Below, one piece after another: positions 22,931 through 27,503 of a stretch of 64,000 bases of DNA (positions are counted from its first letter, which is position 1; every line of letters begins with the position of its first letter). The notes under the pieces were generated by a model. It was not told the origin of the DNA. It ran no database searches and saw only the letters and a program-made list of their open reading frames with translations. The DNA lies in NCBI RefSeq assembly GCF_044324785.1, contig NZ_CP172127.1; one strand, given 5' to 3'. This DNA is from Escherichia coli. Its GTDB lineage: Bacteria > Pseudomonadota > Gammaproteobacteria > Enterobacterales > Enterobacteriaceae. The position numbers were made by a program, and so were the translations under genes.

Positions 22931-23341
22931 CTACACAACGTCAATAAGGGCATATTCTTCAAAGATAACGTCCATTTCGGGTGAATAGCATCCTTCTGCC
23001 TGGAAAAAACGACGGTGTTCATTACGCCAATATTCAAGACTGAGGTCACCTTCACCTTCCTTACGGGCAAGCTCCGCGGTGACATCAGAAAAGCGCAGTA
23101 AATGCAGGCCAATCACTCTGATAACACAGACAGGCTCACCACGGCTATTTTCTACAATCTTATACTCACCAATCATCGGAAATGCGTTGTCTTCAATACA
23201 TCCCGCCAGCGAACCACAGGAAGCTGTTTTAACACCTGTCGCAATCAACGTTGCGAGGTGATCGGCCAACGCTGCTGAATCGCCAAAAGTACAAAAGGAA
23301 GCATGGGGATATTTTTGTGAGATTTTTTCTTTTATGGTCAT
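22931..23341 (-). CDS. ASCH/PUA-like domain protein
   Basis: ORF 22931..23374 (GTG) or from ATG 23341; GVKTAS motif typical of ASCH domains; no clear Shine-Dalgarno at either start. Confidence 0.55.
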   Translation of the reverse strand: MTIKEKISQKYPHASFCTFGDSAALADHLATLIATGVKTASCGSLAGCIEDNAFPMIGEYKIVENSRGEPVCVIRVIGLHLLRFSDVTAELARKEGEGDLSLEYWRNEHRRFFQAEGCYSPEMDVIFEEYALIDVV

Positions 23342-23637
23342 GAGAATATTTTCGCGATTACGGAAAAAAATCACATCTTAATTACTGTAGATAACCATCA
23401 GCAAGAGGATCATTGGTTTTCCTATGTTTAATCTTTTTTATCCGAAGCAGGTCACATTTATGGCTTGATAAATACCTTTGTTAAAACTCACTTTTGTGTA
23501 TTTCTCTCAAATAATCCCCTGGAAATTATGCCGGGAGATTATAAAGTTCAGGATCATTCATTAACAAACCATTCCCGCCCCACTCCCTGGGGCTTAAATC
23601 TCTTACGATTCACCGTTGCAGACATATCAAATGCGCA

Positions 23638-25020
23638 TCAACCTGCCACACTCCCCCACACCAGTTGCCCTTTATGGAACGTCGCCGTTCTCGGCGAGAT
23701 ACGCGCCACCGCCTCGGCGGAACAGGAGGCGTCCACCAGCACAAAGCTGGCGTCATCCTGCGCTTTAGGCCACACACGCTCGCCTTTTTCGTTGAGCGGC
23801 AATACATCGCCAGTGGCTAAAAACAGCGAACGGGAGAGGTTCTGTTCGTTAGGACGAATATAGAGCTGCGCGTAGAGATTGGCTTTTTCCAGCATGTCGC
23901 CCAGGCCGTAAGGCGACCAGTGGTCGATAACGCTGTCGGTGCCGGTCATCACTTTTACGCCTTTGTCGTGCAGTTGTTTAAGCGGCATATGTAGCGTGCC
24001 GATCGGCACCGTCGAGGCGATAGAAATTTGCTGCGCCGCCATCCGGTGCGCCAGTTCATCTACCTGTTGCTCATTGAGCGTTGCCAACGCAAAGGCGTGA
24101 CTGATGGTCAGCTTGCCCTTCAGTTGCGGCGTTTTCTCCACTGTTTCAACCATATAATTGATGGCCGCCACGCCTGCCGGAGTGGTTTCATGCAGGTGAA
24201 TATCGACGCCTTTGTCGTAGTCCAGCGCAATCTGGAACATGGTGTCGAGGGATTTTTCCATCGCGCCATCAACACTGGTTGGGTCCAGCCCGCCGACGTA
24301 ATGCGCCCCTGCCTGCATCGCTTCGCGCATTAAGGGTTCCGATTTCGACAGCAGCAAACCGTGCTGCGGGAAGGCGACGATTTCACACTCGAAGCCCGCC
24401 TGACGTCGCGCCAGCACCGCCTGCAAATTTTGCAGATTTTTCAGGCCGGAAACCGGTTCGATATTGCAGTGGCTGCGGGCAATGGTAGTGCCTTTCGACT
24501 GCAATAAATCGATCAGTTTTTCCGCCCTTTCCTGAGTGTACGGTTGCAACTCCGGCAGCATTTTCTGCTCGAGTTTGATCATGTCCTGGATGGTGGTGCC
24601 TGCCGGGCGATTGAGCGAGCGCCACGGCCCGCCGTAAAAGGTTTTGTCGAGATGAATATGCATGTCGCGGGTGGTGGGCAGCATCAGCTTACCGCCAGCG
24701 TCATAGTGCGGCAGCGTGGCGTCCGGATGCTGCTTGTTCTCGCGCAGGGCAACAATTTTGCCGTTCTGAATCTCTACGGTCTGGTGCGCCGTGCGGGTCT
24801 GTACCGCCACACCGTTTTCGTAGTCAAAACCGGTTTCCAGCAGCACGTTGTCGAGATAGTAGTGCGGGTCAGTGATTTTCATGGTGTTATTCGCGTCGCA
24901 GTTTAGGGTGCCAGAGACTGCCGCATGGGCGAGCGGCACAGAGGTACCAAACAGCGCGGCGGCGGTGACCATCTTACCGCTCTGGCTCAGAAACTCACGG
25001 CGGCTATTGTTTTTTTTCAT
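23638..25020 (-). CDS. yahJ: Tat-signal amidohydrolase (cytosine-deaminase-like)
   Basis: 460-aa ORF; N-terminal twin-arginine motif SRREFL followed by a hydrophobic stretch ending AHAAV; metal-dependent amidohydrolase fold; matches YahJ length. Confidence 0.88.
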   Translation of the reverse strand: MKKNNSRREFLSQSGKMVTAAALFGTSVPLAHAAVSGTLNCDANNTMKITDPHYYLDNVLLETGFDYENGVAVQTRTAHQTVEIQNGKIVALRENKQHPDATLPHYDAGGKLMLPTTRDMHIHLDKTFYGGPWRSLNRPAGTTIQDMIKLEQKMLPELQPYTQERAEKLIDLLQSKGTTIARSHCNIEPVSGLKNLQNLQAVLARRQAGFECEIVAFPQHGLLLSKSEPLMREAMQAGAHYVGGLDPTSVDGAMEKSLDTMFQIALDYDKGVDIHLHETTPAGVAAINYMVETVEKTPQLKGKLTISHAFALATLNEQQVDELAHRMAAQQISIASTVPIGTLHMPLKQLHDKGVKVMTGTDSVIDHWSPYGLGDMLEKANLYAQLYIRPNEQNLSRSLFLATGDVLPLNEKGERVWPKAQDDASFVLVDASCSAEAVARISPRTATFHKGQLVWGSVAG

Positions 25021-25980: not shown

Positions 25981-26030
25981 GTTGTTATGTCCGCTACAGA
26001 GGGTGATGGGGTTATGACCAACGCCAGACT

Positions 26031-26202
26031 GCCTGATGCGCTACGCTTATCAGGCCTAGAATTCTCGTGCCATTCGTAGGCCGGATAAGGCGTTCACGCC
26101 GCATCCGGCAATGGTGACAAATGCCTGATGCGCTACGCTTATCAGGCCTACAGATTCTCGCGCCACTCGTAGGCCGGATAAGGCGTTCACGCCGCATCCG
26201 GC
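26031..26202. repeat. REP cluster (BIME): two tandem copies of an inverted REP pair
   Basis: gcctgatgcgctacgcttatcaggcctac and gtaggccggataaggcgttcacgccgcatccggca each occur twice (26031..26110 and 26123..26202). Confidence 0.88.
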
Positions 26203-26225
26203 AAAGACAACGCGCACTTTGCAGG

Positions 26226-27503
26226 TCAGACGCCGTAACGTTCGCACCAGCCAAGAATGGCTTTTTCGAAGCAGGCGAATGGTGGATGCACAATGCCCGC
26301 GCCAATCATGCCGATGCCCGCATCTTTATGAGCGATGGCGGTGTTGATCACTGGCAGAATGCCGCTACTGCCCACGCGGGTGATGTCGATTGCCGACGGC
26401 ACGCCCATAAAACCGAGCAGCGGAATGGTGACGTTGGGGTTTTCGCCGAGAGTGATTTCGCGCATCTGACGGGAGAAATCGATAGCTTCTTCCACCGTAC
26501 CGCCCACCAGCGCGACGATTGCAGGCGCGGTCGCCATAGCAAATCCGCCAATACCGTAGGTTTCGGTGATGGCACTGTCGCCAATATCCAATCCAGAATC
26601 TTCCGGCTTATAACCGGCAAACATCGGGCCGATCACCTGCTGCGCCGGACCGGAGAAGTAGTCGCTGCTGGCGACAAACTCAAACACTTCGCGCTGTTGC
26701 TCGACGGAATAGCCCGCCTGAATAATCCCCGGCGTCAGCGCCTGAATCAGCAACGTAGTCCCGGCGTTATTGCGGTTATGGCATTCATCGCCCATATGCA
26801 GCGCCTGCGCCAGCATCAAGCGCAGATCGATCTCGCCGATAATTTTCATTGCGTCACGCAGCATTGGCCCCTGCACATCGCGCATCCAGTTGAGGCGGTC
26901 AATCACGCTCTGGTCGTTAGCGCCCATACGCAAAATCTTCGCCATCTGCTCGCTCATGTTGGTATAAGCGATGTTGCCGTAGGTTTTGTTTTTTACGATG
27001 TGCATAAACATCGAGGCCGAGGTAACACCCGCCATCGATCCCACACAGTCGTGTTCGTGGCACGGCGAGAAGGTGATCTCCCCGGAGGCCGCCAGGTCAG
27101 CCGCCTCGTCGAGATCTTTCGCCAGTCCTTCGAACACCAGCGCTCCGGTGACCGCGCCTTTCATCGCGCCGCACATTTTTTCCCAGGTGATCGGCGGCCC
27201 GGCGTGAAGAATGGTTTTCGGCGTCATGCCCGGCACCACGTTAATCGCCTGATCAAAACCAATCAGCACCGGATGTGACTGAATAATGCGCTCCAGAGCC
27301 TGCTGATTAGCGGCGGCGATTTTGTCTGCCAGCGGCGAATCGGCAATGTTATCCAGCGCCTGCACCACCTGCATATTGCCCTGCCCCGGCGGCGTCCAGT
27401 CGAGTTGGGTCACTTCTACATGCTGCTTTTTCAGGTCATCGCTAAACATGGCGATGCCGACGTTAATAACGTTCAACGGTTGGCTAAACAGTGACTGGCT
27501 CAT
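26226..27503 (-). CDS. yahG: DUF1116 protein (YlbE-like)
   Basis: 425-aa ORF homologous in type to YlbE; start overlaps yahF stop by 1 nt. Confidence 0.85.
   Translation of the reverse strand: MSQSLFSQPLNVINVGIAMFSDDLKKQHVEVTQLDWTPPGQGNMQVVQALDNIADSPLADKIAAANQQALERIIQSHPVLIGFDQAINVVPGMTPKTILHAGPPITWEKMCGAMKGAVTGALVFEGLAKDLDEAADLAASGEITFSPCHEHDCVGSMAGVTSASMFMHIVKNKTYGNIAYTNMSEQMAKILRMGANDQSVIDRLNWMRDVQGPMLRDAMKIIGEIDLRLMLAQALHMGDECHNRNNAGTTLLIQALTPGIIQAGYSVEQQREVFEFVASSDYFSGPAQQVIGPMFAGYKPEDSGLDIGDSAITETYGIGGFAMATAPAIVALVGGTVEEAIDFSRQMREITLGENPNVTIPLLGFMGVPSAIDITRVGSSGILPVINTAIAHKDAGIGMIGAGIVHPPFACFEKAILGWCERYGV

Follow-up and report, generated by a model that had tools for sequence, protein, structure and literature searches.

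The window analysed here is a stretch of 64,000 nucleotides of Escherichia coli DNA. Its minus strand carries, in gene order, yahD-E-fdrA(yahF)-G-I-J, a gene for an ASCH-domain protein (below, the ASCH gene), a four-gene ABC transporter and yahK. The features that bear on the ASCH gene are the following.

18244..22680, minus strand: aauABCD (Z0415-Z0419, O-island 17), a D-ribulose/L-arabinose ABC importer, assigned from the 9I1M match and Pfam
21694-22680, minus strand: aauA, a Peripla_BP_4 binding protein of monosaccharide type, 250 nt downstream of the ASCH gene
22681..22930, minus strand: ASCH-aauA spacer, 250 nt, 34% GC, given as context and outside the ASCH unit
22931..23341, minus strand: ASCH-domain coding sequence, 136 aa, assigned from PF04266, a PGAP coding sequence with the same coordinates, orthologue length, dN/dS and the AF2 model
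23015..23059, minus strand: subfamily signature E95-G-E97-G-D99 ... W105 ... H109, with E95, G96, E97, W105 and H109 conserved in 61 of 61 relatives
23213..23236, minus strand: ASCH "octapeptide" G36-V-K38-T-A-S41-C-G43, placed by the alignment of 61 relatives and by hhalign
23342..23374, minus strand: in-frame 11-codon extension to GTG 23374, specific to the N3 allele and not the real start, as judged by the spacing in O157:H7 and E2593
23342..23637, minus strand: yahJ-ASCH intergenic region, 296 nt, 37% GC
23538..23567, minus strand: candidate sigma-70 promoter TTGTTA-N18-TATAAT, predicted only, with 10 of 12 consensus matches
23638..25020, minus strand: yahJ, amidohydrolase/deaminase-like with a Tat signal (PRK06846), 296 nt upstream of the ASCH gene

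The minus-strand open reading frame runs from either GTG 23374 (147 aa) or ATG 23341 (136 aa) to a TAG stop at 22933-22931, and the gene has a GC content of 45%. The interval between the ends of aauA and yahJ (957 bp) matches E. coli strain N3 (NZ_CP031609.1) with 100% identity, and RefSeq/PGAP annotates there an "ASCH domain-containing protein" (WP_000152768.1) of 136 aa starting at ATG 23341. Purifying selection acts on the gene, as dN/dS is 0.14-0.23 (0.14 against the O157:H7 allele and 0.21-0.23 against the 90%-identical orthologue of Escherichia sp. E2593, from a cryptic clade), and these low values indicate a selected protein-coding gene. The ORF at 22931-23341 is a genuine coding gene, and one that is already annotated.

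A preliminary description of this DNA had left the start uncertain between the same two codons. Both codons are there, and a choice between them can be made. Of the homologues listed (n=120), nearly all have a length of 136-137 aa, and the alignment of orthologues from 14 genera begins at the methionine of ATG 23341. The GTG and ATG codons are 33 nt apart here but 35 nt apart in Escherichia sp. E2593 and the O157:H7 allele. This 2-nt indel puts the GTG out of frame in both; compared with these two, only the N3 allele has the extension in frame. Because the PGAP choice, the lengths and alignment of the orthologues and the out-of-frame GTG all point the same way, the start of the ASCH gene is ATG 23341, giving a protein of 136 aa.

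Neither candidate start has a recognisable ribosome-binding site, in agreement with the preliminary description. The best anti-Shine-Dalgarno duplex energy was 0 kcal/mol for ATG 23341 and -2.5 kcal/mol for GTG 23374, compared with -3.2 to -10.8 kcal/mol for the neighbouring genes and a median of -5.2 kcal/mol for 44 orthologues, most of which have an AAGG, AGGG or GAGG box upstream. Around the initiation site the RNA is rich in A and U and folds only weakly (-8.4 kcal/mol over 69 nt). It had also been suggested that expression might be coupled, but translational coupling to yahJ is excluded, since the yahJ stop lies 296 nt upstream of the ATG. No intrinsic terminators were predicted around the ASCH gene, including in the yahJ-ASCH intergenic region, and for that reason read-through transcription from yahJ into the ASCH gene could still occur. 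The predicted promoter in this region, ∼200 nt upstream of the gene, is a candidate for serving a monocistronic ASCH transcript; the scanned region should hold ∼2 matches of this kind by chance alone. Among N3, O157:H7 and E2593 its -10 box is invariant, its -35 box differs by one base, and the region upstream of the ASCH gene is highly conserved. An Rfam search of 21500-24500 with permissive E-values yielded no RNA elements. The two arms of an imperfect inverted repeat of 13 nt lie on either side of the ASCH ORF, but a mobile cassette was rejected and the repeat ascribed to chance: a rough estimate puts the number of such pairs expected in the region at ∼0.4, and neither O157:H7 nor E2593 shares the upstream arm. 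In E. coli the ASCH gene is accessory and probably monocistronic, and its start lacks a Shine-Dalgarno sequence.

The binding protein encoded downstream is essentially identical to AauA (PDB 9I1M, E=1e-213), and the aau genes match the Pfam families Peripla_BP_4, ABC_tran (twice) and BPD_transp_2 (twice). AauA binds D-ribulose with a Kd of 2 μM and L-arabinose with a Kd of 0.6 mM, and Aau is the "accessory L-arabinose uptake" system of EHEC, induced by L-arabinose only, via AraC (PMC12307932, PMC11127945); the ASCH gene is not mentioned in these Aau papers. The preliminary description had placed the ASCH gene between a deaminase-like gene and a sugar/nucleoside-type transporter; Aau is a pentose/pentulose importer. 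A reporter with ∼300 bp upstream of Z0415 suffices for AraC-dependent induction by L-arabinose (PMC11127945), indicating an independent aau promoter within the 250-nt spacer 3' of the ASCH stop. In EHEC RNA-seq data, "Z0414, hypothetical protein" was 3.7-fold up with L-arabinose, Z0415 and Z0417 were 26.5-fold and 43-fold up, respectively, and many nitrogen-limitation genes were also up (PMC11127945). By tag order, Z0414 is probably this ASCH ORF.

On the upstream side, YahJ matches NCBIfam PRK06846 with 716 bits, and its nearest solved structures are AtzC-type N-isopropylammelide amidohydrolases, followed by cytosine deaminase. Its N-terminus, MKKNNSRREFLSQSGKMVTAAALFGTSVPLAHA, reads in the translation as a twin-arginine signal (SRREFL...AHA); this makes YahJ periplasmic, in a different compartment from the ASCH protein, which has no signal peptide. 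The yahDEFGIJ operon encodes AllFGH-like proteins, a carbamate kinase and an amidohydrolase. The ASCH gene neither continues this operon nor has a conserved association with yahJ, because the 296-nt spacer contains a candidate promoter, K-12 carries yahJ without the ASCH gene, and in the other genera examined the orthologues are never adjacent to a yahJ-like gene.

Among 5426 complete E. coli genomes, the ASCH region was present in 2209 and aauA in 2215, a near-perfect co-occurrence. The ASCH gene is absent from ∼59% of complete genomes, and in ∼2800 of the 5426, including K-12 and B strains, it has been deleted with a scar. K-12 and B strains, in which yahJ is followed by yahK, lack both the ASCH gene and Aau, and Escherichia sp. 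E2593 has yahJ-ASCH-yahK without Aau. The co-occurrence within E. coli reflects physical linkage in one indel/variable region; with a separate aau promoter and an E2593 locus devoid of Aau, the ASCH gene is neither co-transcribed nor co-inherited with aauABCD. The 136-aa protein was found on at least 1000 contigs, and its intact 136-aa cluster (1491 members) is the dominant form, with occasional frameshifted alleles (P0011 and P0012).

A scan of 100,044 species genomes, made with a closer alignment, supplied 80 orthologous loci, which fell into 42 synteny groups when clustered by shared ORFs. No neighbour family was shared across the 80 loci beyond local synteny, and no YahJ-like or Aau-like neighbour occurred in any of the 42 contexts. 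The commonest partner, an IclR regulator at 10 loci, belongs to a single Klebsiella/Raoultella/Enterobacter synteny group. Look-ups of the exact-protein context (n=6, the E2593 locus included) placed the gene, outside Escherichia, after lysS in Yersinia canariae and beside arsC and lac genes in Pseudenterobacter. In Kosakonia it has mgtE and an MCP gene on its two sides, in Erwinia it follows a metallophosphatase gene, and in Edwardsiella prophage remnants adjoin it. Tightly adjacent same-strand partners were equally varied (IclR, Asp/Glu racemase, GNAT, cupin, SMR, DinB, LysR, MgtC, isocitrate dehydrogenase, C5 DNA methylase, threonine dehydratase and glyoxalase). A conserved gene neighbourhood was rejected, as neither the six look-ups nor the 80 loci revealed a constant partner.

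The fold of the protein is clear. Residues 38-144 of the 147-aa form match Pfam ASCH (PF04266) with E=8.7e-22 and 78.2 bits against a cut-off of 21.2, and an AF2 model built on 61 diverse relatives reached a pLDDT of 97.2 and a pTM of 0.88. Sequence searches of the PDB with phmmer recovered EF3133 (1T62, E=6e-19) and a Lactobacillus "ASCH domain" protein (3S9X, E=2.6e-16). In Foldseek, 3S9X and 1T62 took ranks 1-3 (TM 0.83-0.86), followed by YqfB (9KYF/9KYH; rmsd 2.0 Å, target TM ∼0.8, 14% identity) and then by ZmASCH and PH0355; the significant PDB matches were ASCH proteins without exception. The ASCH/PUA-like fold proposed in the preliminary description is thereby borne out, and AF2 and Foldseek gave no sign of a structure outside that superfamily.

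Within the superfamily, the protein belongs to the EF3133/YhfF branch (COG4405, formerly DUF984), together with EF3133 of Enterococcus faecalis, 3S9X of Lactobacillus crispatus and the YhfF-type proteins of Bacillus subtilis. It shares with 1T62 and 3S9X the motif G-x-K-T/R-A-[TS]-C-[SG] and the EGEGD..W..H signature; it differs from them in having only 26-29% identity by structural alignment and in lacking ∼15-25 extra N-terminal residues. An exhaustive HMMER search returned 1,756 clusters of EF3133/YhfF-like representatives at E<=1e-3 (50%-identity clusters), and JGI names the homologues "uncharacterized protein YhfF". No NCBIfam model matched the ASCH protein, nor did any PADLOC or PHROGs family of defence or phage proteins. 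Our literature search found no functional study of YhfF, EF3133, DUF984 or COG4405, and 1T62 appears only as a modelling template for YqfB (PMC6972931). Because 1T62 and 3S9X are structural-genomics deposits without an assigned function, membership of the subfamily does not supply a mechanism.

Residue conservation was examined in 61 diverse relatives of 29-90% identity. L29, L32, K38, E95, G96, E97, W105 and H109 are invariant; position 41 (Ser in our protein) is Thr in 49 and Ser in 12, and position 43 (Gly in our protein) is Ser, Gly, Trp, Cys, Met or Ala and never Arg. Of the ASCH octapeptide, G-x-K-x-x-[E/T/S]-x-R, the Gly, Lys and Ser are present here and the terminal Arg is absent. The signature that we derived, K-T-A-[TS]-C plus E-G-E-G-D-x-S-L-x-Y-W-R-x-x-H, is complete in the window protein, invariant or nearly so in the 61 relatives, and visible also in the alignments with 1T62 and 3S9X. 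The protein has a pI of 4.93, and all 61 relatives have a pI below 6 (median 4.64), as does YqfB (4.68); the acidity of every member examined favours a small-molecule role over a nucleic-acid role.

YqfB had been named earlier as the characterised comparator, and the choice was a good one: its catalytic Lys, Thr(Ser) and Glu positions are conserved as K38, S41 and E95. A weak hhalign alignment (probability 35%, E=4e-4) equates G36, K38, S41 and G43 with G19, K21, T24 and R26 of YqfB and E95 with E74, and it agrees with the Foldseek superposition. The two proteins share the ASCH beta-barrel (YqfB structures 9KYF/9KYH and 1TE7), with an rmsd of 2.0 Å over ∼107 columns, and both are acidic and monomer-sized. 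They differ in length (136 aa, with an extra N-terminal helix-strand, versus 103 aa), in the replacement of Arg26 by Gly, and in the invariant E97, W105 and H109 that are additional here. YqfB H70 is not conserved, as it aligns with L91, a variable position (F, L or H among the relatives), and YqfB Tyr89 falls outside the aligned region. In YqfB, Arg26 forms the oxyanion hole, H70 and Tyr89 recognise the substrate and E74 is the general acid. Of the YqfB variants, K21A, T24A and R26A have lost their activity, E74A works 100-1000-fold more slowly, and T24S is close to wild type (PMC6972931). Judged by its alignment, then, the ASCH protein is not a YqfB-type enzyme, the equivalent of Arg26 being Gly here and never Arg in the subfamily.

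Taken together, these data lead us to favour, tentatively and as a reading that falls a little short of probable, a stand-alone, single-domain cytoplasmic amidohydrolase-like enzyme of 136 residues. As a small hydrolase it would split an amide (N-acyl) bond of some small molecule, with Lys38 as the base, Ser41 as an activating residue or nucleophile and Glu95 as the acid, the counterparts of Lys21, Thr24 and Glu74 of YqfB. We infer both catalysis and the type of bond, as we do the promoter and the expression level of the gene. Because YqfB R26A is inactive and the subfamily is without that Arg, hydrolase activity is not to be assumed. The substrate or the stabilisation of the transition state probably differs from that of YqfB, given the absent Arg and the subfamily's own invariant Glu97, Trp105 and His109. 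The gene is physically linked to the Aau importer but would have no functional tie to Aau or to the yahD-J operon.

The main rival is an eraser of ac4C from tRNA or other RNA, or an amidohydrolase of free ac4C, which would make the protein a second, accessory ac4C deacetylase in E. coli; we regard this as possible but doubtful. In a recent preprint, 19 of 19 diverse ASCH proteins tested deacetylated ac4C-tRNA in vitro; the essential residues were the octapeptide Lys and Glu/Thr, and EOLA1 could do without the Arg (10.64898/2026.02.27.708502). Lys38 and Ser41 are conserved in our protein, and YqfB is the closest functionally characterised structure. However, the same preprint recognised a bacterial "not R" octapeptide class and explicitly left it out of the assays (10.64898/2026.02.27.708502), and the loss of activity in YqfB R26A, together with the variable residue at the H70 position, speaks against an ac4C activity of the YqfB kind. 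In addition, E. coli already has yqfB, the ASCH protein is strongly acidic, and no RNA-modification genes recurred in the neighbourhoods of the 80 loci. The GKER-type ASCH proteins (TthASCH 2DP9, EOLA1, TRIP4-ASCH and ZmASCH) resemble ours in superfamily and in the octapeptide Lys, and those tested all deacetylated ac4C-tRNA in vitro, but they have Glu where the EF3133/YhfF-type proteins have Ser/Thr, mostly keep the terminal Arg, and matched our model with Foldseek E-values of 2e-3 or weaker. Several of them are basic proteins that bind nucleic acids, and ZmASCH acts as a ribonuclease.

Fusion proteins offer hints about function. Roughly a sixth of the 150 top-ranking representatives are fusions, and among 20 that were scanned, an N-terminal GNAT acetyltransferase occurred in 4; the other partners were GATase, PLP enzymes, cupin, histidine phosphatase, RidA, glyoxalase, GT2 glycosyltransferase, an LPG-synthase membrane domain, a ferredoxin domain, DUF2007 and DUF4286. 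The GNAT-ASCH fusion of Alcaligenaceae is present in several isolate genomes and forms a 19-member cluster, whereas the other architectures are mostly singletons at 90% clustering. GNAT, cupin, glyoxalase and PALP also recur as close neighbours of ASCH genes. In a suggestive, not a statistical, way, the fusions and neighbours favour small-molecule enzymology, possibly deacylation opposite an acetyltransferase. A more specific and speculative form of the amidohydrolase-like reading, which we consider unlikely as it stands, is that EF3133/YhfF-type ASCH proteins form a class of their own of Arg-less Lys-Ser/Thr-Glu amidohydrolases that act on an N-acetylated or N-acylated metabolite or xenobiotic other than ac4C and serve as "eraser" partners of GNAT enzymes, with the E. 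coli copy as an accessory deacylase whose expression rises mildly along with the arabinose/nitrogen response. The "eraser" element comes from the GNAT neighbours and from fusions of GNAT with ASCH that arose independently in Alcaligenaceae and Lactobacillaceae.

Whatever the family does elsewhere, the gene might be a poorly expressed passenger in E. coli that is heading for loss. The start without a Shine-Dalgarno sequence, in which it departs from most orthologues, the GC content of 45% with flanking spacers at 34-37%, the scarred deletions and the frameshifted alleles would all fit such a course. We nevertheless think it improbable: the low dN/dS extends to the 90%-identical cryptic-clade orthologue, the intact 136-aa form predominates, the upstream region is highly conserved and, if the tag mapping is right, Z0414 was both detectable and differentially expressed (PMC11127945). 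Because the gene has no Shine-Dalgarno sequence and is missing from more than half of the complete genomes, its contribution in E. coli may even so be little.

A non-catalytic role is less likely again. Some ASCH, EVE and YTH domains have been proposed to be readers or binders, and the PUA-like fold would allow our protein to read or bind RNA or DNA with modified bases; in Moraxella canis, moreover, the last 4 bp of a C5 cytosine DNA methylase gene overlap the orthologue. We consider this very unlikely, because the protein and all 61 relatives are acidic, the invariant Lys, Ser/Thr, Glu, Glu and His resemble an active site, PADLOC and PHROGs gave no match, and the methylase link is confined to that one locus. 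The least tenable proposal is that of the preliminary description, in which the ASCH protein joins YahJ and/or the downstream transporter in the salvage of modified nucleosides or nucleobases: same-strand adjacency, co-occurrence with aauA and the induction of Z0414 by L-arabinose speak for it, but it is left unsupported, and largely refuted, by the sugar specificity and separate AraC-dependent promoter of Aau, the separability of the genes in E2593 and K-12, the 42 contexts with neither neighbour, the periplasmic location of YahJ and the linkage in one indel region that accounts for the co-occurrence.

Much at this locus was already known, as the gene is annotated, its family has two crystal structures, and both the substrate and the regulation of the adjoining transporter appeared in print in 2024-2025. 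The worth of the present result is that the start codon has been assigned and that the nucleoside-salvage story drawn from the neighbourhood proves unfounded, the neighbours YahJ and Aau saying nothing reliable about the substrate of the ASCH protein. The EF3133/YhfF branch, as the one large bacterial ASCH class that stands outside the ac4C assays, keeps the Lys, Thr(Ser) and Glu of YqfB without its essential Arg, and it thereby provides a test case for ASCH enzymologists.

A twin-arginine signal (SRREFL ... AHA) is clearly recognizable at the N terminus of the product of yahJ (23638–25020, minus strand), the gene on one side of the ASCH gene, which makes YahJ a periplasmic amidohydrolase. Among proteins of solved structure, it is closest to AtzC-type N-isopropylammelide amidohydrolases (E = 4e-44); cytosine deaminase is more distant (E = 1e-19) and is not the nearest solved relative. 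Upstream of yahJ, yahEFG match the Pfam AllH/AllF/AllG (oxamate carbamoyltransferase-like) families. The former yahH region between yahG and yahI (26012–26305) contains ORFs with repeated 'CRMRRERLIRPT' and 'GCGVNALSGLR' translations, which are typical of REP/BIME repeats. A small hypothetical protein is called by PGAP in this interval, and ribosome footprints on ORF X002 within it were reported from EHEC translatomics (PMC4765031).

Two elements were found upstream of and around the ASCH ORF.

23378–23413, minus strand: upstream ORF of 11 codons (MILLLMVIYSN*), ending 36 nt before the ASCH ATG
22923–22935 and 23386–23398: 13-nt inverted repeat, 12 of 13 positions complementary (ATAGTTATCTACA / TGTAGATAACCAT), flanking the ASCH ORF

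The upstream ORF is preceded by an AGGA box in strain N3, is retained without AGGA in O157:H7, and is extended to 22 codons with non-conservative changes in Escherichia sp. E2593; it is probably fortuitous. By our own rough estimate, ∼0.4 inverted-repeat pairs of this kind are expected by chance in the 1.1-kb ASCH region, and neither O157:H7 nor E2593 conserves the upstream arm of the repeat.

An AraC half-site has the form TAGC-N7-TCCATA. Reading the ASCH-aauA spacer (22681–22930, minus strand) by eye, we noted TGCC-N7-TCCATA within ...TGCTGCCCGTTTTGTCCATATTT..., which resembles this form and which we take to be a putative AraC-like half-site. Such a candidate is in line with the AraC dependence that has been published for aau.

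AauA (21694–22680, minus strand) is named "autoinducer 2 ABC transporter substrate-binding protein" in RefSeq. Its score against the LsrB model was 111 bits (cut-off 384) and that against the RhaS model 137 bits (cut-off 342), both below threshold, and its published ligand is D-ribulose (PDB 9I1M). The RefSeq label is therefore misleading. When the PGAP coordinates (NZ_CP031609.1) were mapped to the window, aauB-D were shifted by 1 base relative to aauA and the ASCH gene. This shift would point to a 1-bp indel in the aauA-aauB spacer (21645–21694) that distinguishes the window from the RefSeq sequence, or else to a start/coordinate quirk.

The two closest ASCH orthologue loci outside Escherichia, those of Yersinia canariae and Pseudenterobacter timonensis, have different surroundings apart from a DUF6998 gene, which lies within ∼1.5–2.5 kb of the ASCH gene in both (L003 9843–10736 and L005 5641–6519, respectively). 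DUF6998 and ASCH may form a small co-mobile island. In Moraxella canis (L085 3982–5354), the first 4 bp of the ASCH orthologue overlap the end of a C5 cytosine-specific DNA methylase gene. This overlap is intriguing because the characterized relative of the family acts on N4-modified cytosine; it was seen at this single locus, and the ASCH neighbors differ at L084 and L090, which are related loci from Moraxella.

The yahK-yahJ spacer of K-12 (Origami2, L002 2200–2760) is a deletion scar that contains three remnants.

window 18244–18315: 3′-terminal 72 bp of aauD (99.6% identity)
window 22909–22978: 3′-terminal 48 bp of the ASCH gene and the 22 bp that follow it (94%)
yahJ side: first ∼60 bp after yahJ

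PGAP annotates a partial pseudogene at the aauD piece. The same aauD remnant is present in Escherichia sp. E2593 (L011 8382–8700), where the ASCH gene is retained. 'O-island 17' has been described in the Aau papers as acquired by EHEC. The remnants in the K-12 scar, together with the E2593 locus, suggest that 'O-island 17' (ASCH and Aau) may have been lost from Aau-negative lineages, in no fewer than two deletion events, and not simply gained by EHEC.
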